Positions 1,530 to 41,157 of a stretch of 64,000 bases of DNA are shown piece after piece. The notes beneath the pieces were generated by a model, which worked only from the letters and a program-made list of their open reading frames with translations, was not told the origin of the DNA and ran no database searches. Both the position numbers and the translations under genes were made by a program. This DNA comes from Candidatus Bathyarchaeia archaeon (GTDB lineage Archaea; Thermoproteota; Bathyarchaeia; 40CM-2-53-6), in NCBI GenBank assembly GCA_035935655.1, contig DASYWW010000062.1, positions 270,632-334,631 of the forward strand, given 5' to 3'. Positions within the stretch are counted from its first letter, which is position 1. The number at the start of each line of letters is the position of its first letter.

Positions 1530-3362
1530 TCATGCCGAAAGGGTAAGCTTCCGTCTGACTTCGGGGATTCGAGTACCCTGTCTCGAAATCAACTCTAGGT
1601 CGAAGAGATTCTCGAACATCGACACGGCCTTCATGTCGTGTGCTGGGTAGTTTAGCAGAAAGACTCCTGTAATCCTGTTTGAGGCCATTAGCTCTAGGGC
1701 TTGGCGAACAAATGAATGTGCTCTCTCGGTTCCAAGTGTAAAGATCTGGTGCGAGACATTATCGAAGATCATGGTGAAGGGTGTTGAGGCGTAGGCTTCG
1801 ATCGTCTTGTTCATCGAGTCGAGAATAAGTGAGCTGTCGAAAGCCGGTATGAGAACCACGTTTTCGCTCTCCTCCTTCGGATACGACACCCTAGAGGTTA
1901 GCACGAACATCTTCAGTCCTGGTTCATCTTCCATAGTTGAATGAATCGGGCTATCCTTTCTCGTGAATAGAATTACGCGCTCGAAATTGGACGCGGCTTC
2001 GGTGGCCAACGATTTGAGTATTTTCTCGTAGCCAGAGAGCGGGTCGTATTCTAGTAGGATTTTCCGTCCAGCGATTTCGTCATGAGACAGTCCAACCGTG
2101 CGAGAGAATACGTCGCTCGACTCAGTCAGGTCAATGACGGGTAGCTTCGATTTCAAGAGGCTTAGGGTTGACTGCTCATTCTCGAAGGCACTCTCGACAA
2201 AGGTCATCATCACTTGAGCATAATGGTCTGGAGTAGCCCATCTGGGGTCTGCGATGTGGTTTACGAACTTCTGTAGCGGACGTTTGATTCTGTCGCCGTA
2301 GTCTATGACTATCCTTAGCCCATTCTTGCCCAAAGCTCTAGTCTCAATCGCCAGTTCTTGGCATTGCGCGATTGCTGCTTCTTCATCGAGAAGGTTTTCG
2401 CCTTGGTAAAGGCTGTCAAGAGACGGCAATCGGAGGTTTCCTTTGGTCAGGTTGTGCTTTACATCGACCCCGTTTCTTGATAGCTCATCCCGTGCTGCTC
2501 CCTCGTCATTGGAGTGAAAGTAGAGGACTCGGTCTTGCTGGTTGACCCCCTCGTTAACAAACCGTGCTATGGGGGTCATTTTCGCCTCGTTTTTTTCGTA
2601 GATTAGGACGATTTGGTCACCTCTCATCACACCTGGGTTTGGTCCTAAGGAGGGGACTAGTCCGAGGAATGCTCGCAAGAAAGTCGGTCTCTTGAAGGCT
2701 GTTACTGCTGCGAGAAGAAGAATAACGCAGGCAAAATGCACTACGCCTAGCAAGCTGTACCCAAAACTCGCAGAGGCGTATCCAAACAGCAACAATGCTG
2801 AGACCGCTGCGAAACATCTCGCGATTACCCTCAACGCACCTCTAACCTCGCGGTCCCTCAGTTGCGATCTAAGTCGAGATAGGACAACGAATGAGTAGAG
2901 AGTGAAGGACGAAATTACGATCGCGGCGATGGTCAGTAGGAAAGAACCCAGACCGACCGCTCGATAGGTCGTGTTGTCAAGCACATAGAATGCTTGACGG
3001 TTAGCCCTCGGATCTATAGATGGGGCATCTACAATTGTCAGTATGACCAAGAAGACCATCGGAACAAGGTAGAGAAGGAAAGCAAGATGTATTGGCTTTC
3101 GAGGGTTGGCAAGTGCCGAACGCAGAGAGAATTTCTCAGGATAGAAGTATAGCTTGGTTACCAATAATCCCCATAATGTGGCGATGATGGCTGCGGCGGC
3201 CGCGAAAGATTGAGTGGTAAGTCTAATCAGATCTTCGTTGGGGTAAAATATCAACACTAGTTGTGAAATGGGAAATGCGTTGAAGAAGGAGTAGATAGCT
3301 AGGAAGTAGGTCTTGTAGGGTCGGAAGTAAGAAAGAGGCTCTTTGATGATAACGAGAATCAT
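1530..3362 (-). CDS. membrane-anchored sensor-like protein (about six N-terminal TM helices plus MEDS-like and Walker-A-less KaiC/RecA-like cytoplasmic domains)
   Basis: 610-aa ORF. The first ~230 aa form about six long hydrophobic helices. The remainder resembles MEDS/KaiC-type alpha/beta domains (..DRVLYFHSNDEG.., ..RVILFTRKDSP.., ..MIFDNVSH..) but has no GxxGxGK[ST]. Confidence 0.45.
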   Translation of the reverse strand: MILVIIKEPLSYFRPYKTYFLAIYSFFNAFPISQLVLIFYPNEDLIRLTTQSFAAAAAIIATLWGLLVTKLYFYPEKFSLRSALANPRKPIHLAFLLYLVPMVFLVILTIVDAPSIDPRANRQAFYVLDNTTYRAVGLGSFLLTIAAIVISSFTLYSFVVLSRLRSQLRDREVRGALRVIARCFAAVSALLLFGYASASFGYSLLGVVHFACVILLLAAVTAFKRPTFLRAFLGLVPSLGPNPGVMRGDQIVLIYEKNEAKMTPIARFVNEGVNQQDRVLYFHSNDEGAARDELSRNGVDVKHNLTKGNLRLPSLDSLYQGENLLDEEAAIAQCQELAIETRALGKNGLRIVIDYGDRIKRPLQKFVNHIADPRWATPDHYAQVMMTFVESAFENEQSTLSLLKSKLPVIDLTESSDVFSRTVGLSHDEIAGRKILLEYDPLSGYEKILKSLATEAASNFERVILFTRKDSPIHSTMEDEPGLKMFVLTSRVSYPKEESENVVLIPAFDSSLILDSMNKTIEAYASTPFTMIFDNVSHQIFTLGTERAHSFVRQALELMASNRITGVFLLNYPAHDMKAVSMFENLFDLELISRQGTRIPEVRRKLTLSA

Positions 3363-3552
3363 CAGAGCGTCTACTATGATTGTTCCGATGTTTAGGGTCG
3401 CGGCTACGTAAGGTTCCGTTTTTTTTCAGCCCTCTAGGCTTGACCTACGCCAGCATGTACGCTGGCTCAACACCCTCCTGTTGCAGATGCCTAGGCGAGG
3501 GCCGATCTGGGTTTAGACTCGTGTTACCAGAGAAGAACTTGTGCAGTGACTG

Positions 3553-4494
3553 TTAGGCAACATCTGGGAGACCGAGAGACTTCGCTGCCGCTTTCAGGTC
3601 TCTCATTCTGCTTCTAATGGTCACTTCTGAGACCCCTGCCGCTTTTGCAAGGTCTCTCTGCATCACCATCGAACCGCGTATTCTAGCAGCAAGGTCAAGT
3701 GCTGCTGCCGCCAATCCGTCAGGGTCTTTGCCGACGTTCACTCTCAGTCGGATTGCCTCTCGGAGAATCTTTCCTGCCAACATTTCTGTTTGAGAGTCTG
3801 CCCCTGCACGAGACGCTATTTTCGAGACCCGTTTCAATGGGTCTTCAATAGCCATGGTCACGTCGAGAGACCGGACTAAAGCTCTGTAATAGTGGGCTAG
3901 GAGTTTTCTGCTCATTCCTGATGCTTTTGCGATCTCGCTCAAAGAGCGAGGGACGTCGGTCAATCGACAGGCTGCGTAGGTCGAGGCTGCGACCATTCCG
4001 TTTATCGGTCGGCCTCTGACGAGGCCTTTGTTGAGCGCTCTCCTGTACATCAGCGCTGCACGCTCGGTGACTACTTCCGGAAGGTTCAGTCGTCCGGCTA
4101 GTCCCCGGAGCTGACTCATCGCCCTGGACAGGTTTCGCGCAGTTGACGATCCGGCGGACGCGCGGAGCTGTGTCCTTCGGAGTCGCCAGAGCTGGAGTCT
4201 CTCGTCTGCGCTGAGCGATCGGTTGGAGGCTTGTGCTCTGGAAATGATCGTGGAGAGGTTCTTGTCAAAAGCTGAGAATCTTCCTGGTGGTCCTGACTGG
4301 CTTTCAAGGAGTCCCTCCTCGGTTCTCCTAGGAACCGGCGCCGCATACTGTTCTGCGGGGTCGGATAGGACGAAACCGCAGTTGGTGCAAATAACCTCGC
4401 CCGTCTCGGCATCTCGGACGAGGCTCGGACTGCCGCAATTGGGACAGACGTAGTGTCCGACTTCGTCTCGGGGTCGTGTCTTCCTCCGGCTCAT
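3553..4494 (-). CDS. tfb: transcription initiation factor B (TFB/TFIIB)
   Basis: N-terminal Zn ribbon (CPNCGS..CTNCG) followed by two cyclin-fold repeats. The ORF is open to a TTG at 4587, but the ATG at 4494 gives the usual ~310 aa. A TATA-like CTATATGA lies on the minus strand near 4600. Confidence 0.9.
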   Translation of the reverse strand: MSRRKTRPRDEVGHYVCPNCGSPSLVRDAETGEVICTNCGFVLSDPAEQYAAPVPRRTEEGLLESQSGPPGRFSAFDKNLSTIISRAQASNRSLSADERLQLWRLRRTQLRASAGSSTARNLSRAMSQLRGLAGRLNLPEVVTERAALMYRRALNKGLVRGRPINGMVAASTYAACRLTDVPRSLSEIAKASGMSRKLLAHYYRALVRSLDVTMAIEDPLKRVSKIASRAGADSQTEMLAGKILREAIRLRVNVGKDPDGLAAAALDLAARIRGSMVMQRDLAKAAGVSEVTIRSRMRDLKAAAKSLGLPDVA

Positions 4495-4617
4495 TACAGA
4501 GCCCCCGCCGGGGTAGGTGGTCTGCGGGGTCCGGGCTGGGTTAAGCTGGTTATCCTTTTCCGGTGAGACCGTGGAAGTGCCCGCCAACTGTACTCATATA
4601 GGTGTCGGGGGCCACAA

Positions 4618-4989
4618 ATGAAGCTTGTTACTCTTTTCAAAAAGTCGATGAAAATGCCCCCGGAATACGTCCCTGGCAAGTGCAATATTGGTGCCCGGGG
4701 ACGGGCCATACGACTAGCCACAGGACTTGGGATAATAGCTGTATTCGTAGGCATTGACGCGCTTGCTCTAGGCTCGATGTTCGCCCCTTTTTCGGCTTCC
4801 ACTGTTCGTACCTTTCTACGTCGGCTTGCTGACAGCTCTATAGGGAACGATGTCGTTCTGTGCACTTCATGCCTTCAGGGCACCTATGACCTCCACGAGC
4901 CAATCGGCATGGCCATTGGCAGATCTGAAACCAAATGGAGGTGCGGTCTGACGAGTGGAAGAGGCTGGACCGGCGGAAGGCTAGGGTAA
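4618..4989 (+). CDS. hypothetical small membrane protein (weak DUF2892/YgaP-like N-terminus)
   Basis: 123-aa ORF. The segment ..CNIGARGRAIRLATGLGIIAVF.. resembles the NxG..R..R motif plus helix of DUF2892. It overlaps an antisense ORF, and coding status is uncertain. Confidence 0.25.
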   Translation: MKLVTLFKKSMKMPPEYVPGKCNIGARGRAIRLATGLGIIAVFVGIDALALGSMFAPFSASTVRTFLRRLADSSIGNDVVLCTSCLQGTYDLHEPIGMAIGRSETKWRCGLTSGRGWTGGRLG

Positions 4990-5027: not shown

Positions 5028-6191
5028 CTACTCGCCTTTGCCTAGCTGACCACTTGTCAGCCGCGGCTTTCTCTGCGATCTTTGAGCCGAGAATCGAGAA
5101 AGGTCGAAGCCGGCGTCTCGGTCTAGAACGAGCTCTGCCAACAGCTTACCGATGAGAGGCGCGAACTTGAATCCGTGTCCTGAGAAGCCGTACCCGTAGA
5201 CGACGTTCTGATGATCAGGGTCCCTGTCTATTACGAAGTCAGAATTCTCGGTCATATCATAGAGGCACACTTTTGTCTGGACCACGTCTCCTTGGGCTAG
5301 TTCGGGGACAAATTCTCGGCAGGCATCCCTGCACTGTTCTATTTGTTCTTGGTCAACCGATCTTCTGACTGTTTCAGGATCGACGCGGTCGATGAGTTCT
5401 TTGTTAGAAATCTTGACCCCTTCTATGCCGGCGGCTGGAAGACCATAATGATGATCTGTGAAAAAAACTGGGCAAGAGGACGGCCGGAATCTCTCTAGAC
5501 CGCGAAACGGCTTGAGATAGATGAGTTGTTGTCTTGTCGGAGTGACCCCTGTGAGCTCATCTCTAAGAAAACTCCTAGTCCATGGTCCGACTGTCACGAC
5601 TAACTTCTTGGCTCGGATTGTTTGTCCTTCTGACGTCTCTATTTCCAGGCCGGATTTGTCCCGAAACATGGTGACACGCTTTTCCAGAATCTTCACTCCA
5701 TGGCTGACAGCTTCGGAGGTGAAGGTCTCTAGACTTTTCGACGCTAAGAGAACTCCTCCGTGAGGGTCGAAGATTGCCCTCTCGGCTTGGAACTGAGGAA
5801 AGTGCCTCTTCAGCTCAGGTCCCTCGTAGATGTGGGCGCCAAGCCCTTGTTTGGTCAGCATTCTGAAGCTGGATTCATCGAACTTGTTGGCCTGTTCATC
5901 GTTTCCCTCCAACATTAGCAAACCAGTAGGAATGAGCAACTCATGACCGGTTTCCTTTTCGAGGTCATTCCACAGTCTCAGGCTTTCAACTGCCATTTTT
6001 GTGTAGTATTGGTCATTTCCGTATGCGTAACGGAAAACCCTGTTGACATCGTTGGAGCTGCAATAGTCGTTTCCTACACCGTATCGATCTAGCAGTAGAA
6101 TCCTATCCTTTGTTATCCGGCTGATTGCGTATGCGGTAGCCGCACCCATGACTCCTCCACCAACAATGCAAACATCAGTTTCTAGCTGCAT
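5028..6191 (-). CDS. FAD-dependent oxidoreductase, monomeric sarcosine oxidase / N-methyltryptophan oxidase family
   Basis: N-terminal dinucleotide fold DVCIVGGGVMGAATAY, plus RYAYG, GFSGHGFKF and the Cys in KVCLYD at the position of the flavinylated Cys of MSOX. Confidence 0.8.
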   Translation of the reverse strand: MQLETDVCIVGGGVMGAATAYAISRITKDRILLLDRYGVGNDYCSSNDVNRVFRYAYGNDQYYTKMAVESLRLWNDLEKETGHELLIPTGLLMLEGNDEQANKFDESSFRMLTKQGLGAHIYEGPELKRHFPQFQAERAIFDPHGGVLLASKSLETFTSEAVSHGVKILEKRVTMFRDKSGLEIETSEGQTIRAKKLVVTVGPWTRSFLRDELTGVTPTRQQLIYLKPFRGLERFRPSSCPVFFTDHHYGLPAAGIEGVKISNKELIDRVDPETVRRSVDQEQIEQCRDACREFVPELAQGDVVQTKVCLYDMTENSDFVIDRDPDHQNVVYGYGFSGHGFKFAPLIGKLLAELVLDRDAGFDLSRFSAQRSQRKPRLTSGQLGKGE

Positions 6192-6717: not shown

Positions 6718-7950
6718 ATGCAAGTTGGCATCATGAGAAAGGGAGCTTCCACTAGAGCTTCAGGCTTCACCGAATCCGTCATCCGCGAGATGACCCGACT
6801 CTGCCAGGCGTATGGGGCAGTAAATCTTGCGCAGGGGTTTCCTGATTTTGACCCTCCTCTCAGCATTAAACGAGCAGCTGCGAACGCGATCTACAATGGA
6901 TTCAATCAATACTCCACTACTCACGGGACATTGAGCCTGAGGAAAGCCATAGCTCGCAAGATGAAAACGTACAATCACATTCCTTGCAGCGAGGACGAGA
7001 TCACTGTCACGTGCGGTACGACTGAGGGGATGATCGCCTCAGAACTAGCGCTGCTGAATCGAGGAGATGAGGTGGTGATCTTCGAACCGTTCTACGAGAA
7101 TTATGGTCCTGACGCCATTCTCTCTGGCGCAAAATGCCGATACGTCACTTTACGTGAGCCAGACTTCAGGATCGAAGAAGAAACCCTCAAACATGCGTTC
7201 AATCGCAAGACCAAAGCGGTAATCATCAACACACCTCACAATCCTACAGGGAAAATTCTGACCCGTCAGGAACTAGGCCTGATCAGCGATCTCTGCCAGG
7301 ACTATGATTCCTACGCCATCACCGACGAAATCTACGAACAGATTCTCTACGATGGACACCAGCACGTGAGCATTGGAAGCCTACCTGCAATGGAGGATCG
7401 AACAATCACCATCTCCGGATTTTCCAAGACTTACAGCGTAACGGGTTGGCGCGTAGGGTATGTGGTTGCGCCAAAGCCCCTTACCTCTGCAATTCGAAAA
7501 GTTCACGACTTTCTCACAGTTTGCGCCCCCACCCCTCTGCAGGAAGCGTGCACGGCCGCGCTCCAGCTGCCAGAGTCCTACTACGAACAACTACGAGAAA
7601 ACTATCGAAAGGGCAGAGAGATGTTAGTTGAGTCGTTGAAGAATGCTGGATTCGGGGTTTTCAAGCCAGAAGGCGCATACTACGTCTGGACCACGACAAA
7701 CAGAACAGGTTTCAAGGACGACCGAAAGTTAGCCTTACATTTGATCACCAAAGTTGGAGTTGGTGGAGTTCCGGGGTCGAGCTTCTTCCACAACCCATCT
7801 CGTGGGAGGCTACGATTCAGGTTCTCCTTCTCGAAGAAGCCAGAAACGATCCGACGAGCAATCAAGAGACTGGAAAAATTCTCGCCCAAACACCCTTTCA
7901 GGCACCCTGAATACAGGGCGACGCGCAGAATTGCCGCTACTGCTCGCTAG
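6718..7950 (+). CDS. PLP-dependent aminotransferase, class I/II (aspartate/kynurenine aminotransferase-like)
   Basis: NTPHNPTG motif and PLP-lysine motif SGFSKTYSVTGWRVGY. 410 aa. Confidence 0.85.
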   Translation: MQVGIMRKGASTRASGFTESVIREMTRLCQAYGAVNLAQGFPDFDPPLSIKRAAANAIYNGFNQYSTTHGTLSLRKAIARKMKTYNHIPCSEDEITVTCGTTEGMIASELALLNRGDEVVIFEPFYENYGPDAILSGAKCRYVTLREPDFRIEEETLKHAFNRKTKAVIINTPHNPTGKILTRQELGLISDLCQDYDSYAITDEIYEQILYDGHQHVSIGSLPAMEDRTITISGFSKTYSVTGWRVGYVVAPKPLTSAIRKVHDFLTVCAPTPLQEACTAALQLPESYYEQLRENYRKGREMLVESLKNAGFGVFKPEGAYYVWTTTNRTGFKDDRKLALHLITKVGVGGVPGSSFFHNPSRGRLRFRFSFSKKPETIRRAIKRLEKFSPKHPFRHPEYRATRRIAATAR

Positions 7951-18141: not shown

Positions 18142-18259
18142 GGGCCCGTAGCTCAGCCAGGTAGAGCACCGGAAGAGCGGCGTTAGTGCTCTGGTGAGGC
18201 TTTTAGCCTTCGAAGGGGACACCCGGCTGTCCCGGGTTCAATTCCCGGCGGGCCCGCCA
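18142..18259 (+). tRNA. tRNA-Lys(UUU) with two introns flanking the anticodon loop; CCA encoded
   Basis: GGGCCCG-TA-GCTC-AGCCAGGTA-GAGC-A-CCGG[26 nt]G-CTTTTAG-C[15 nt]CCGG-CTGTC-CCGGG-TTCAATT-CCCGG-CGGGCCC-G-CCA. Total 118 nt, which is 77 nt plus 41 nt. An alternative stem (TGAGG/CCTTC) gives the same anticodon. Confidence 0.7.
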
Positions 18260-23855: not shown

Positions 23856-24033
23856 GCCCAGGAGATGTATGCCGGGCTCGCGCCCCATTCCTGGAATACG
23901 GGAGTGCGTTGAGGTAGTATAGCCCGGTCCGCGGCTTGCGGGAGCCGGCCGAGAGTATGCACGGCTGTCACCCGTGCGACACTCGAGCATATCCTCGAGC
24001 GTGTTGCGGGTTCGAATCCCGCCCTGGGCGCCA
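23856..24033 (+). tRNA. tRNA-Asp(GUC) with three insertions; CCA encoded
   Basis: Acceptor GCCCAGG/CCTGGGC plus G73-CCA. TA-GTAT-AGCCCGGTC.. D arm. Anticodon arm CACGG-CTGTCAC-CCGTG. T arm GCGGG-TTCGAAT-CCCGC. Total 178 nt, so ~100 nt is extra: 52 nt between the acceptor 5' strand and position 8, ~24 nt in the D loop, and ~24 nt in the variable region (CTCGAG-CATATC-CTCGAG hairpin). Confidence 0.7.
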
Positions 24034-27861: not shown

Positions 27862-27983
27862 TCCAAAATCTGATCTTGCATTGCGCAGCTTCTCCCGGCC
27901 TTTGATAGAGGAAGCCTGTGAAAGCCGGGAGCAGTTACAGTTTCAACCTCTCGGTTTGCCTCTGACTGTCATTGGACGCTATG

Positions 27984-28074
27984 CGGGCCCGCGGGGATTC
28001 GAACCCCGGACCTACAGCTCAACCCGCTCATAGCTTAGGGGGCTGCCGCTCTGTCCAGACTGAGCTACGGGCCC
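27984..28074 (-). tRNA. tRNA-Arg(CCU) with canonical 16-nt intron; position 33 is C
   Basis: GGGCCCG-TA-GCTC-AGTCTGGACA-GAGC-G-GCAGC-CCCCTA[AGCTATGAGCGGGTTG]A-GCTGT-AGGTC-CGGGG-TTCGAAT-CCCCG-CGGGCCC-G. A bulge-helix-bulge motif is visible, with bulges TAA and TGA and a central (C)CCC/GGG(T) helix. Confidence 0.7.
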
Positions 28075-37894: not shown

Positions 37895-38923
37895 CTACCG
37901 GAAGTTCCTAGGAATTTCTAGGTCGCCGGTTTCCGTTAAGACCCTATAGCAATTGAGGGTAATCCATTTGCTAGGCTTTCCAATTTGTTCTATGGTCGCG
38001 GGGGCCTTTCTTCCCTTTCCACTCGGATAGAAGAAATCTCCTTCTCTGAACCAGTCCCCTTCCAGATTCCAAGTTCCGTTCGGACTGCGTTTTGAAAGCA
38101 AAAGGTGAGTCGCGTCTCTAATTCTCTCGTCATCTGAATATCCCAGTTTTGTCAACACTCGAAGCCCGTGAAGAATGTCATAGAAGTAGTACATTGGAAA
38201 ATGAAGCGCGGTGAAGAAGGGATAGGTCTCTTTCCAATGATGATTGTCTGACTTGTAGACGCGGTGCATTAAGAGAAACTCCGCTCCTCTTTCGATTGAT
38301 CGTTTCATTTTTCTCGTCCATTTTTGCCGAGGAATTTCTGAGTAGGCCCACAGTGGCTCGATGGTTGACATGAATGAACTGTGCTTCACTTTCTTTTCGG
38401 GATAATCGCAGTTCCATCCGCCGTCTTCCAGTTGTCCCTTGGCCAGCCAGTTGATTGCGTTTTTGAGACGGCGGTCCTCGCCGTATCCAAACTTGATTAG
38501 CGTTCGGATCATGTTGCCTGTGAGACATGGTTCGTCCCATCTCCTCCTCTTCTCCTCAATCTTGCTCGGACAAGCAAAAGCGCCTGTATCCACTTGGTGC
38601 AATTCGAGAAACCGTTCACATTCACCCTTGATTCTCTGATCCGCAGGAGCTTCCAACTCACCTAGTAAGGCCAGAGGCCAGGCAGCAGCCGTCCACTTTG
38701 GACGATAGCAAGTCTCCTTGGGAGGCCAGTAGCCCCCACGGGTTTGCCCCTTCATTATGCGCCTGACAGGCCCAGATTTTTCTATCCTCTCTCGGGTTGC
38801 TACAACATCTTTGTCGCTGGTGCGACGACCTAGTAGGTCGGTGAGAGTGTGAAATCTTATGGAAGGATCCTTTGGATCCAGTAGCCATTCAATTGTAGGC
38901 TGTTTCATGACGTTTGGCTTCAA
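37895..38923 (-). CDS. prenyltransferase / squalene-cyclase-repeat (alpha-alpha toroid) like protein
   Basis: Repeated ..Q..DGGW.. type motifs (TRGGYWPP, QLEDGGWNCD, SPNGTWNLEGDW). 342 aa. Confidence 0.5.
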   Translation of the reverse strand: MKPNVMKQPTIEWLLDPKDPSIRFHTLTDLLGRRTSDKDVVATRERIEKSGPVRRIMKGQTRGGYWPPKETCYRPKWTAAAWPLALLGELEAPADQRIKGECERFLELHQVDTGAFACPSKIEEKRRRWDEPCLTGNMIRTLIKFGYGEDRRLKNAINWLAKGQLEDGGWNCDYPEKKVKHSSFMSTIEPLWAYSEIPRQKWTRKMKRSIERGAEFLLMHRVYKSDNHHWKETYPFFTALHFPMYYFYDILHGLRVLTKLGYSDDERIRDATHLLLSKRSPNGTWNLEGDWFREGDFFYPSGKGRKAPATIEQIGKPSKWITLNCYRVLTETGDLEIPRNFR

Positions 38924-38972
38924 ACTGGCTCTGTTAATCGTTTCCTCGGGGGTCTAAGCATAGTCGATGAGA

Positions 38973-39443
38973 CTACCGGCGTATCATCTTCTCCGTTTCA
39001 CGAATCTGACCAGCATAGATCTGTCGGTCCTCTTCATCAATGTTCAAGGAGCCAAGTTGTTTCTTCGCTTTGCTGAGATACTTTCTGGCAACTTTGTAGT
39101 TCTTTGCCACCGCGTGAGCTCGCGCAACAGCTTCATAGGCAGTGCCGAGAATCTCTATCAAGTTATTCTTCTTGGCGATCTCCAGTGATGATCTGGCGAA
39201 TTGAAGCGATAGGTTGGGACGGCCGAGGGCTGCGTATACTCGAGAGATCTGCCAATCCCCAACTGCCTGGTTTCGGGGACTACCGACAAGACTCCAATGA
39301 TAGCGCGACGAGTGGGCCAAGTGTAGCATCATCGCGTCATCCTCGGCGTTTCTTTTCTTCTTCTCTAGGTAATCCCAAGTTCTGTTGAAAGATTGGGCCC
39401 CGGTTTTCCGGTGAAACCTGCGTTCACTTTCTGTCATTCTCAT
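38973..39443 (-). CDS. hypothetical TPR-like helical protein
   Basis: 156-aa ORF with helical-repeat character and no specific motif. Confidence 0.45.
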   Translation of the reverse strand: MRMTESERRFHRKTGAQSFNRTWDYLEKKKRNAEDDAMMLHLAHSSRYHWSLVGSPRNQAVGDWQISRVYAALGRPNLSLQFARSSLEIAKKNNLIEILGTAYEAVARAHAVAKNYKVARKYLSKAKKQLGSLNIDEEDRQIYAGQIRETEKMIRR

Positions 39444-39493
39444 GGTCGGTGTTCATTGAGTATTGTCATATTGTAGCTGGGTGAGTGCACGAA

Positions 39494-40006
39494 TTACTCT
39501 GGCGGGGGTTCCCAGATTACTTCCGCTATGCTGAATGCCAGTTTGACGTCCGCTTGTTTCAATTGCTCAGGTGGTATCTCCATTGGAACTCGAACCTCCC
39601 CGGCGATAGCGCACACCGCGTCGTTCAACCATCGATATTTCTCGCTCTCCGTCGTGTGTCTGGCAAAACCCACGACCTGTCGACGCCGCTTCGTCGCGGG
39701 GTTTGTTGTTGGCCTAAGTTTGTACAGTTCCTGAGATCGGTCGGATGATCGGCCATAGCCTTGGAAGTCGAGCATTATCAACGCGGAATCATCTGTTTCT
39801 ATGAATCCTTGGATATTCATGGTAAAGGTTTCGTCGGTACGTCGGTGAGGATGATTCGATCCTCGAAATCTTCCGGAGATGCGTCCCTCACATATTCCTT
39901 CAGCGAAGTAGAAATGGTCTTCCTCAGTTCCCTTTTTCCCAGTAAGATTAACCTGCCATCCGTCGGGATAGAAGAATCGGACCGTGTAGAGAGGTTCCAG
40001 TCGCAT
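39494..40006 (-). CDS. hypothetical beta-barrel protein (DUF3237-like)
   Basis: ..EGICEGRISGRFRGSN.. and ..TDDSALIMLDFQGYG.. resemble DUF3237. The assignment is weak. Confidence 0.45.
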   Translation of the reverse strand: MRLEPLYTVRFFYPDGWQVNLTGKKGTEEDHFYFAEGICEGRISGRFRGSNHPHRRTDETFTMNIQGFIETDDSALIMLDFQGYGRSSDRSQELYKLRPTTNPATKRRRQVVGFARHTTESEKYRWLNDAVCAIAGEVRVPMEIPPEQLKQADVKLAFSIAEVIWEPPPE

Positions 40007-40087
40007 AATCCCTCCGCAATCTCGACGATATTAATTCTATTCGAGAAACACTTAGCGAATTCAGCCCGGACCTCATAAAGGGATGGG

Positions 40088-40127
40088 TGGCGAGCCCGGT
40101 GGGATTCGAACCCACGATTTTCGGACC
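40088..40127 (-). other. orphan tRNA 3' half (variable region, T arm, acceptor 3' strand, CCA) with no detectable 5' half
   Basis: Minus strand reads ..TCCGA-AAATC-GTGGG-TTCGAAT-CCCAC-CGGGCTC-G-CCA. It matches the 3' end of tRNA-Arg(UCG) at 41055..41088 in 33 of 34 nt. No matching acceptor 5' strand or D arm was found in the next ~1 kb. Confidence 0.6.
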
Positions 40128-40149
40128 ACACTCTGTAAGATAAGACAGT

Positions 40150-41040
40150 TTGCGGGACGTCCTTGTTCTGAAGCCCCTCATAAGAGAGCAGATTTGTAGG
40201 ATTCGAGCTCTTCGGCGGAGCGGGCAGTCGTACAAGGAGGTAGCTCGCCGCGCAGGATTTTCAGTAAGCACTGTGCACAAGTATGCTTTCAAAGTTAGAC
40301 TCGACAAGAGAAGCAAGGCGCGAATCCAAGAAGGGGTTTTTCGAACACAGCGTAATTTTGTCAGCAAGTTTGCTCGCGTTAAAACCGTAGCGGTAACGTC
40401 CCAAGAGTTGACCCGTGACAAGGCTCGCCTGCTAGGGCACATATTATTCGACGGAATCGCTACACGCTACGTTATCAGCTATACAACCGCATCGTCAGCT
40501 TTGGCTCGGCAGTTTCTGAATGACCTCGAAATTAGCTATCGAGGGCTTAAGCCGCGAATTCGAAAATATGCATCCAAGAACATGGATGTGTATGATGTAA
40601 CCGGGGCCTCAATCATCGCCTGCAATGACATTCGCAGGTTTCTTTGCAAACCAGACGTGCGGACTCTGCAGCATCTCCAGTCAGCAGTTATGAACTCAGA
40701 CACGGGGCTGTTAGTACAGATTGTACGGGCGTTTTGGGAAGATGAAGGAAGCACTTCGAGAGAAGGAAACGTAACCGGAGCTATCAAGAACATAAGATTG
40801 CGCAACCAAATCCTTCTAATTCACCAAAAACTCGGAATAGGCGTTAGCCCGTACAAGGATGGAGCCAACCAAATGTTTGGCATCTATGTCAGAAGAGGGC
40901 ACAGAAATCTGCAAAGATTCGATCACCTTGTTGGTTTCCGCAAAGCCATCGTAACTCGAGGTTTGAACATCGGGATCCTCAAAAGGTCAGTACTCTCGGA
41001 ACATCTCGGCCGAGAAAAAAATTGGAAAAGCTGTCGCTAA
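40150..41040 (+). CDS. HTH domain plus double-motif LAGLIDADG homing-endonuclease-like protein
   Basis: 296 aa with a TTG start. N-terminal HTH (..SGQSYKEVARRAGFSVSTVHKY..) and two dodecapeptide-like motifs, LLGHILFDGIA and IVRAFWEDEGS, ~100 aa apart. Confidence 0.6.
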   Translation: MRDVLVLKPLIREQICRIRALRRSGQSYKEVARRAGFSVSTVHKYAFKVRLDKRSKARIQEGVFRTQRNFVSKFARVKTVAVTSQELTRDKARLLGHILFDGIATRYVISYTTASSALARQFLNDLEISYRGLKPRIRKYASKNMDVYDVTGASIIACNDIRRFLCKPDVRTLQHLQSAVMNSDTGLLVQIVRAFWEDEGSTSREGNVTGAIKNIRLRNQILLIHQKLGIGVSPYKDGANQMFGIYVRRGHRNLQRFDHLVGFRKAIVTRGLNIGILKRSVLSEHLGREKNWKSCR

Positions 41041-41054
41041 CATCTGTGAAGCGT

Positions 41055-41157
41055 TGGCGGGCCCGGTGGGATTCGAACCCACGATTTTGGGCTCTCTTCA
41101 CTCCGAAATAGATAGCTCCGAAGGCCCACGTCTTGGTCCTGGCTCGACTACGGGCCC
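41055..41157 (-). tRNA. tRNA-Arg(UCG) with canonical 24-nt intron; CCA encoded
   Basis: GGGCCCG-TA-GTCG-AGCCAGGACCAA..GAC-G-TGGGC-CTTCGG[AGCTATCTATTTCGGAGTGAAGAG]A-GCCCA-AAATC-GTGGG-TTCGAAT-CCCAC-CGGGCCC-G-CCA. Confidence 0.8.

Follow-up and report, generated by a model that had tools for sequence, protein, structure and literature searches.

It has long been asked how the tRNA genes of archaea gain introns, are deprived of halves and end up split. One proposed cause of such disruption is mobile elements, for which few concrete cases have been described (PMC3293823). Among free-standing homing endonucleases, those of T-even phages such as SegB, which lies between tRNA genes, mobE and F-CphI are intergenic and stand beside their presumed targets (PMC2988022, PMC2790892, PMC6083498). 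They spread by break repair, in the course of which flanking markers are co-converted, and in the phage system known as collaborative homing the intron of a neighbouring gene is a possible means of protection (PMC6083498). A likewise intergenic endonuclease gene is described here from a cellular archaeon. It is located in a stretch of 64,000 nucleotides (nt), called the window below, of a Candidatus Bathyarchaeia archaeon (GenBank assembly GCA_035935655.1, contig DASYWW010000062.1, positions 270,632 to 334,631). Between window positions 40,088 and 41,157, a single open reading frame (ORF) for a LAGLIDADG endonuclease-like protein is bracketed by an orphan copy of the 3' half of tRNA-Arg(UCG) and by the complete tRNA-Arg(UCG) gene. 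The arrangement is probably a mobile LAGLIDADG cassette of about 1 kb, residing in a soil Bathyarchaeia archaeon and carrying a non-functional duplicated tRNA half. In full-text literature searches, we found no published account of an archaeal LAGLIDADG gene that stands free at a tRNA gene or that is bracketed by tRNA halves.

The right bracket of the cassette is the complete tRNA-Arg(UCG) gene (41055-41157, reverse strand), which comprises a 5' exon (41118-41157), a 24-nt intron at the canonical 37/38 site (41094-41117) and a 3' exon with encoded CCA (41055-41093). The gene scores 53 bits with Rfam and is missed by default ARAGORN, being called only with the intron option (tcg, i(41,24)). The left bracket (40088-40124, reverse strand) is an orphan copy of the 3' exon of the same tRNA and spans approximately nt 40-76, including CCA. 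Positions 40088-40124 and 41055-41091 form a direct repeat with a distance of 967 nt, which agrees over 34 nt with one mismatch (33/34 identical) and can be extended to 37 nt with two mismatches. The right copy of the repeat is the last 37 nt of the tRNA, and the repeat starts 2 nt inside the 3' exon. The chance expectation for a 20-mer of the repeat with at most three mismatches is 0.01 in the window. The left copy has an intact T arm and CCA, and its acceptor strand, CGGGCTC, would form one G-U pair with the 5' strand (G2-U71), given by the left-copy-specific T at 40094 (U71). No tRNA is called at the left copy (40060-40220) by ARAGORN, with the intron option included. A pattern search with GRGCCCGTAG and blastn-short for a matching 5' half in the 64-kb window gave only bona fide tRNA 5' ends; there is no GAGCCCG half, and for GGGCCCG the only candidate is the 5' half of the intact tRNA-Arg(UCG) itself.

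The gap between the two copies is filled by one ORF on the opposite strand (40150-41040, forward strand; 296 aa, TTG start, stop included). It is antisense to tRNA-Arg(UCG), intergenic, and stops 14 nt short of the tRNA CCA, and thus does not reside in an intron or intein, which is the usual but not obligatory residence of homing endonucleases. The spacer from the left copy to the ORF start (40125-40149, forward strand) must hold or overlap the promoter or 5' end of the ORF. There is no integrase or other gene between the repeats, and the single ORF has no recombinase domain. A first-pass annotation, made from the letters alone, had reported the 34-nt repeat, the opposite-strand ORF, the lack of a tyrosine or serine recombinase and the lack of a 5' half for the left copy, and these four observations stand, the last of them for the 64-kb window. 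The same annotation saw weaker similarity reaching from the left copy into the intron; this does not rise above chance when the 35-nt flank of the left copy is aligned locally to the anticodon loop plus intron and compared with shuffles (p ~0.29 in the window, 0.02-0.6 in five relatives).

The protein begins with a three-helix helix-turn-helix (HTH) domain of the transposase/resolvase type at about aa 12-46 (40183-40287, forward strand), which is matched by the Pfam families HTH_38, HTH_7 and HTH_23 and is formed in the structure model by helices 12-23, 28-35 and 39-46. LAGLIDADG motif 1 is LLGHILFDG (aa 94-102; 40429-40455, forward strand), in which D101 and G102 do not vary among 46 family members. 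Motif 2 is IVRAFWEDEG (aa 191-200; 40720-40749, forward strand), in which G200 is invariant and W196, D198 and E199 are kept in at least 90% of members. Both catalytic acidic residues, Asp101 and Glu199, are kept, at positions that are invariant or nearly so throughout the family. The window protein taken alone gives weak Pfam matches, namely to the HTH families at aa 12-45 and to LAGLIDADG_3 at aa 191-262, the latter with 20.7 bits against a cut-off of 22.5. LAGLIDADG_3 is matched by 44 of the 46 aligned family members, with a best E-value of 4e-13. NCBIfam has no named family for the ORF and returns a weak match to the N-terminal part of an IS21 transposase. In an exhaustive profile search, the family numbers 252 members at E<=1e-3 and 101 at E<=1e-10, counted as clusters at 50% identity.

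The family profile, compared with the PDB, finds 7qss (TliVMA) at 6e-9 as well as 1dq3, 2cw7 and 2dch, and covers both motifs. These entries are intein or intron LAGLIDADG endonucleases (TliVMA, PI-PfuI, PI-PkoII and I-Tsp061I). The AlphaFold model of the ORF has a mean predicted local distance difference test (pLDDT) score of 95.9 with the 46-sequence alignment as input, and nine sequences gave 56. Foldseek places the TliVMA intein endonuclease, I-DmoI, PI-SceI, WhiA and I-Tsp061I at the top with probability 1.0, and the match to I-DmoI has a target-normalised template modelling score of about 0.7, at 13-16% sequence identity to the solved structures. Model, Foldseek and profile agree on the pseudo-symmetric alpha-beta-beta-alpha-beta-beta-alpha fold, present twice. 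The N-terminal HTH and the two LAGLIDADG motifs that had been read from the translation are therefore borne out, and so is the fold itself. According to the model, the product is a monomeric two-domain LAGLIDADG enzyme of the I-DmoI type with an extra HTH, and nuclease activity is predicted. The ORF sequence itself has no apparent sign of a loss of this activity.

A search for further copies of the ORF beside tRNA 3' halves finds them in related genomes. The layout of a tRNA 3'-half copy, the ORF and tRNA-Arg(UCG) is present in at least 13 further Bathyarchaeia loci, which form two clades. All homologs with at least 39% identity and a 3' flank present (L001-L015 and L017) stand convergent to a tRNA-Arg(UCG) that contains an intron. 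The window, L001-L013 and L015 have the 3'-half copy on the left; the left side of L014 is truncated by a rearrangement, and the contig of L017 begins inside the ORF. Locus L004 belongs to a Bathyarchaeia metagenome-assembled genome, and the antiporter that flanks the cassette has its nearest named relatives in Candidatus Bathyarchaeota/Bathyarchaeia. Clade A comprises the window, L001, L002 and L005-L008, and its tRNA has a 24-nt intron at 37/38 and an encoded CCA. Clade B, whose proteins are about 42% identical to that of the window, consists of L003, L004, L009-L015 and L017, and its tRNAs have an intron of the 19-nt class that follows the anticodon stem on its 3' side. The last seven codons and the stop of the clade B ORF are the antisense of the tRNA from the T loop to the CCA, and the left copy in this clade is an intron-less 3' half from nt 38 exactly to nt 73/74, with unrelated flanks beyond it. 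Common to both clades is the unit of one gene whose ORF abuts or overlaps the tRNA 3' end.

More distant family members (25-37% identity) adjoin 5S rRNA genes (L019, L020, L022 and L023) or other tRNA genes (L021 and L024), and no partial duplications of 5S rRNA or of other tRNAs were detected around them. L018, a member with 34% identity, has an 18-nt direct repeat, AACCCCxGCGGGCCCACC, at 5890-5907 and 6855-6872, which resembles a tRNA terminus, with the end of the acceptor stem followed by CCA; tRNA detection gives no call there, and the contig ends 50 nt further on. The 5S rRNA beside the distant member in L020 (5907-6050) has an insertion of about 29 nt in loop C, possibly an intron, which is not found in the 5S genes of L019, L022 and L023.

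The occupancy of the slot differs among close relatives. The window, L001/L006 and L005 are syntenic from HhH-GPD through AsnC and the cassette to a cation/proton antiporter, and the slot was compared among genomes whose flanking antiporter is 91-94% identical. In L030-33 and L036, the same slot holds an unrelated LAGLIDADG gene (BLASTP against the window ORF, E=0.83; Pfam LAGLIDADG_3 at 5e-15 and 1e-16), whose copies are 76-84% identical to each other, and L030 still has a decayed left tRNA copy. L037 has no endonuclease gene, carries a different tRNA-Arg intron of 37 nt and has a DUF4037 gene downstream. L044, of the clade B type, contains tRNA-Arg(UCG), a neighbouring tRNA-Ile and MscL with no ORF and no duplication; the intron and T stem of its tRNA are those of cassette-linked tRNAs, without CCA. 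The comparison with related genomes proposed in the first-pass annotation thus yields both endonuclease-free and replaced alleles, and the locus is not fixed.

Sequence divergence also separates the cassette from its surroundings. Between the window and L002, the synonymous divergence (dS) is 0.62 for the ORF and 2.1 for AsnC, and it is saturated for the abhydrolase and HhH-GPD genes. Between the window and L001/L006, the ORF has a dS of 1.04 and the flanks 0.74-1.05, and this pair fits vertical descent because the two values are alike. Two values of the ratio of non-synonymous to synonymous divergence (dN/dS) were set aside as alignment artefacts (AhpC against L001/L006 and g35822 against L036). 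In clade B, L010 and L015 are 36% identical in the left flank, 52% in the right flank, 83% in the left copy and 82% in the tRNA 5' half, and the element between these outer parts is far closer, with 89/89 identical positions in the leader, 94% in the ORF and 94% in the tRNA 3' half with its intron. The similarities of left copy and ORF are discordant from pair to pair (92% and 78% for L003-L010, 83% and 95% for L010-L011, and 69% and 93% for L009-L015). Intact ORF copies have a dN/dS of 0.15-0.2, rising to 0.3-0.4 among the closest pairs, and are by this measure under purifying selection. Four of the 18 copies are pseudogenes, by a frameshift (L004 and L008), a nonsense codon (L012) or a 5' truncation (L014). 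Optional presence, horizontal transfer and degeneration are the population behaviour of homing endonucleases, and judged by these alignments the unit is mobile and optional: it moves horizontally, is replaced, decays into pseudogenes and is missing in some relatives.

The region downstream of the tRNA 3' end, on the AsnC side, is hypervariable and by its gene content is a variable islet. In the window, three genes lie between AsnC and the left copy (37895-40006, reverse strand), encoding a 342-aa squalene-hopene-cyclase-like repeat protein, a 156-aa TPR-like protein and a 170-aa DUF3237 protein. All three are absent from L001/L006; in L005, only the DUF3237 gene is intact and the 342-aa gene survives as a fragment, and L030 retains no more than a remnant of DUF3237.

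The boundaries of the duplications and fragments at this tRNA all cluster at the anticodon-loop/intron position in the aligned loci. Left copies begin at nt 38 in clade B and 2 nt into the 3' exon in clade A, and in L026-29 an orphan 5' half of tRNA-Arg stops at the junction of exon and intron, CTTCGGAG, with an acceptor mutation in three of the four loci (L026-28). The tRNA-Arg(UCG) locus is, from the variety of its alleles, an insertion hot spot. In L026-L029, whose antiporter is 94% identical, the locus consists of the orphan 5' half (~3127-3168) and a 19-nt remnant of the tRNA 5' end (4350-4368), which bracket a 339-aa ArsR-like HTH/DUF7347 ORF. In the 37-nt intron of the L037 tRNA-Arg(UCG) (3472-3588), 13 nt of the anticodon stem-loop, GGGCCTTCGGAGT, are repeated directly, and 18 nt of the tRNA 5' end recur at 4344-4361, beyond an inserted DUF998 gene. 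The introns of tRNA-Arg(UCG) vary among close relatives between 24 and 37-38 nt, and a quasi-palindromic CUUCGGAG pairs with its own repeat in predicted folds.

A mechanism can be proposed on this basis. The enzyme would cut cassette-less tRNA-Arg(UCG) genes, probably in or near the anticodon-loop/intron region; the cut is placed at about nt 37/38 because all duplication and fragment boundaries fall there. Repair from a cassette-bearing copy would then bring in both the ORF and a functional 3' half of the tRNA. One route would be gene conversion in which the tRNA sequence itself provides portable homology arms, one arm being the full tRNA and the other the 3'-half copy. The element would be independent of conserved flanks because the tRNA supplies the homology, which matches the unrelated left flanks of clade B. 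Another route to the same product would be a break-stimulated single-crossover insertion of a circular copy with one 3' half. In either case, the resident 3' half would be displaced to the far side, where it would become the scar or homology arm seen at 40088-40124 and decay slowly, and the insertion would be harmless to the host because the tRNA stays intact. The first structure of this kind may have arisen by one-ended invasion followed by end joining, in which case the displaced half would begin at the cut. This particular scheme of cutting at 37/38 and repair is put forward tentatively, and it is more doubtful than the mobility of the cassette as such.

Several points weigh against the cassette interpretation. 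We infer the cleavage target from position alone, and the adjacent intact tRNA would have to be immune to its own enzyme. Protection of this kind could have been carried by the element in the form of the intron, as in collaborative homing, and the prediction was that endonuclease-free relatives would be intron-less and would have a T stem of the left-copy type. This idea is not borne out, for both endonuclease-free alleles, L037 and L044, are intron-bearing; with two such alleles it is weakened and kept as a weak possibility. The cassette-type intron and T stem of L044 weaken element-borne immunity and also the view of left copies as native halves. An empty site with the same flank on the tRNA 3' side was not recovered in flank-based look-ups, and hence there is no precise junction before and after insertion. 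In clade B, the left copies of L009 and L011 differ by an A-U/U-A flip in the T stem, which could mean function and not host origin. Moreover, L013 has a second, intact-looking intron-less 3' half (3845-3885) 1 kb beyond its decayed proximal copy, with an unrelated 237-aa ORF (3937-4650) between the two, which suggests nested or successive insertions at one site. Finally, scars of 18-19 nt made of the duplicated tRNA 5' end surround other genes in L026-29 and L037, and other integration machinery acting in trans could make such repeats.

These last points bear on the best of the alternatives, in which the repeats are classical attachment (att) sites of an integrase-bearing plasmid or virus in the tRNA-Arg 3' half, and the LAGLIDADG gene is cargo or part of a miniature element mobilised in trans. 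Archaeal integrases leave precisely this kind of trace, namely direct repeats that span a tRNA from the side of the anticodon loop to the 3' end (PMC3293823). Direct repeats of the tRNA 3' part stand at both borders here with the tRNA reconstituted, as in integrative elements, the ORF nested in L013 is not a LAGLIDADG gene, the 5'-end scars enclose other genes at the same tRNA, and the N-terminal HTH is like those of transposases and resolvases. Yet no integrase or integrase fragment occurs between the window repeats, among the genes called in L001-L003 or in the Pfam-scanned ORFs, the other loci having had no systematic recombinase scan, and no homologs are found in IMG/VR or in plasmid and phage collections. 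A minimal one-gene unit is kept across two clades at 42% identity, two unrelated LAGLIDADG lineages share one slot, and the wider family is tied to stable-RNA genes. An integrase-made att site is therefore considered unlikely. An att-type duplication in which the LAGLIDADG protein itself may be the mobility function, as the first-pass annotation had allowed, is favoured instead, given that the fold is real, the layout recurs, ORF-less and replaced alleles exist and horizontal transfer is seen.

The nature of the left copy bears on a second alternative, according to which it is a working 3' half from which a split tRNA is made by trans-splicing, or else an alternative 3' exon, and the ORF is incidental. 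The 34 nt of the real clade A tRNA are identical in the window, L001, L005, L007, L008 and L037; L002 and L036 have one T-loop change each, and the CCA end is altered in L030 and L036. Of the left copies, in contrast, three have 0, 1 and 1 changes, three have 2, 3 and 4 changes with an indel in each, and one has 10 changes, against 0-1 in the tRNAs linked to a window-type ORF. The pairing of the T arm or acceptor is lost in the left copies of L002, L007, L008 and L030, and the proximal copy of L013 is decayed as well. Clade A left copies are thus not under selection comparable to that on the functional tRNA, and they behave, on this pattern of substitutions, as unselected remnants and not as halves of a split tRNA. 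Since they decay while the real tRNA is invariant, the left copy is read as a duplication scar or homology arm. The window copy is nearly perfect, with one change, and taken by itself may be functional, as its T arm, acceptor strand and CCA would permit; a complete isoacceptor lies 1 kb away, and a split version would not be needed. In several loci, a TTAACTAG-like promoter box precedes the real tRNA by about 30 nt; in a direct reading, the window left copy has no such box upstream.

The clade B copies are more ambiguous. They begin at nt 38, are intron-less and keep the pairing of the T stem through change (GGGGG/CCCCT, GAGGG/CCCTC, GTGGG/CCCAT and GGGGG/CCCTC). This is weak evidence for selection because most variants are joined by single transitions via G-U, the exception being the A-U/U-A difference between L009 and L011. 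The leader of about 90 nt in L009-L012 and L015 is 89/89 identical although the ORFs differ at a dS of ~0.1, and is by its conservation strongly constrained. It holds a perfect, TATA-like palindrome, GATTATAATC, 40 nt upstream, which could serve both strands. Related genomes, L026-29, do contain an orphan 5' half of tRNA-Arg, which in L026-28 has the acceptor-stem mutation. In L009 and L011, the 39-43 strand of the left copy is not complementary to the 5' strand of the anticodon stem in the neighbouring tRNA-Arg, and no other candidate 5' half is known. From the pairing variants and the incongruence between left copy and ORF, we infer that the clade B left copies are probably halves of different resident tRNA alleles. 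The split-tRNA explanation, also raised in the first-pass annotation, is accordingly disfavoured by the lost pairing in L002, L007, L008, L030 and L013 and by the lack of a 5' half in the window, and is very improbable.

In a third alternative, the ORF encodes a domesticated, non-mobile DNA-binding protein like WhiA, which regulates or protects stable-RNA genes, and the repeat is an old tandem-duplication scar. WhiA, which combines LAGLIDADG and HTH domains, is among the structural matches, the family stands consistently beside tRNA or 5S rRNA genes, the ORF is under purifying selection and the leader is fully conserved among clade B copies. WhiA has lost the catalytic acidic residues. In contrast, the catalytic Asp and Glu are kept in this family, presence, absence and replacement are polymorphic among close relatives, pseudogenes are frequent, and the dS discordant with the flanks indicates horizontal transfer and not stable vertical inheritance; with no tRNA 5'-half remnant beside any left copy, domestication is as improbable as a split tRNA. 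A plain decayed tandem duplication, the remaining suggestion of the first-pass annotation, is disfavoured because the boundary falls at about nt 38-40 in both clades and no locus has a remnant of the 5' half.

As a mobile cassette, the locus and its at least 13 relatives provide a population-level series at one tRNA, from the intact gene through the cassette with an orphan 3' half and the other endonuclease to the orphan 5' half. A nuclease-only element would here spare its essential target by duplicating part of it and not by splicing. To our knowledge, such a strategy has not been described for LAGLIDADG genes. The family is also a potential source of new nucleases with long targets and an accessory HTH domain. 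A further conjecture, on balance unlikely, is that cassettes of this family drive the fragmentation of archaeal tRNA genes through repeated breaks at 37/38 that are repaired with tRNA-derived arms. If this were true, the orphan 3' halves (as in the window), the orphan 5' halves (L026-29) and the swapped 3' halves and introns would be repair products, and the route from an intact to a split tRNA gene would be observable, with a tRNA half as a portable arm for integrase-free insertion. The association with 5S rRNA and other tRNA genes would then extend the mechanism to stable-RNA genes in general.

Other tRNA genes in the window are also of unusual structure. An unannotated tRNA-like gene of 118 nt (18142-18259, forward strand) has a GGGCCCG acceptor, a D arm, a T arm and an encoded CCA. 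It contains about 40 extra nt, probably in more than one intron, is missed by default ARAGORN and by Rfam, and is called with the intron option as an implausible 'tRNA-Stop(tta)'. A likely intron-rich tRNA gene of about 178 nt (23856-24033, forward strand) reads GCCCAGG ... GCGGGTTCGAATCCCGC CCTGGGC G CCA and is called by no tool. An intron-bearing tRNA-Arg(CCU) (27983-28074, reverse strand) has a GGGCCCG acceptor stem like that of tRNA-Arg(UCG). CCA encoding is mixed among the tRNA genes of this genome, since tRNA-Arg(CCU) is without it and tRNA-Arg(UCG) has it.

The split tRNAs of Nanoarchaeum equitans and Caldivirga maquilingensis have a free-standing 3' half from about position 38, as does the window copy. 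Here, in contrast, the half has a complete tRNA of its own identity as a neighbour and undergoes decay in relatives, and no complementary 5' half or leader-trailer pairing is found. SSV1 in tRNA-Arg, pNOB8-type elements and the Caldiarchaeum tRNA-Thr fragment with its 1.8-kb insertion (Sugahara et al. 2012, PMC3293823) have the same borders as the window cassette, with an intact tRNA opposite an orphan fragment in direct repeat. Population heterogeneity, tRNA fragments and intron differences that go with insertion are likewise seen in Caldiarchaeum and other integrative elements (PMC3293823) and at the window locus. The window cassette differs from SSV1 and pNOB8 in that no recombinase is found and that its sole gene, within about 1 kb, is a LAGLIDADG nuclease.

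In comparison with the T-even phage endonucleases, which are of the GIY-YIG, HNH or EndoVII-like type, the window enzyme is a LAGLIDADG protein in the chromosome of a cellular archaeon. Target-derived direct repeats are not mentioned for the phage genes (PMC2988022, PMC2790892, PMC6083498) and are present at the window cassette, and the intron-based immunity of collaborative homing is unsupported at the window locus, where endonuclease-free alleles have introns. Closest in fold are I-DmoI, I-Tsp061I, I-PorI and the intein endonucleases PI-PfuI, TliVMA and PI-SceI, which share the monomeric two-domain structure with one catalytic acidic residue per motif. The I-DmoI-type group, which is archaeal, further shares with the cassette a stable-RNA target, a presumed one in the present case, as well as presence/absence polymorphism and decay into pseudogenes. 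I-DmoI, I-Tsp061I and I-PorI reside in rRNA introns, whereas the window ORF is free-standing, on the opposite strand and outside the tRNA, and unlike these enzymes and those of inteins its product has an extra N-terminal HTH. The I-DmoI-type genes and the inteins are rendered harmless by splicing, whereas the window insertion would be rendered harmless by a duplicated tRNA 3' half.

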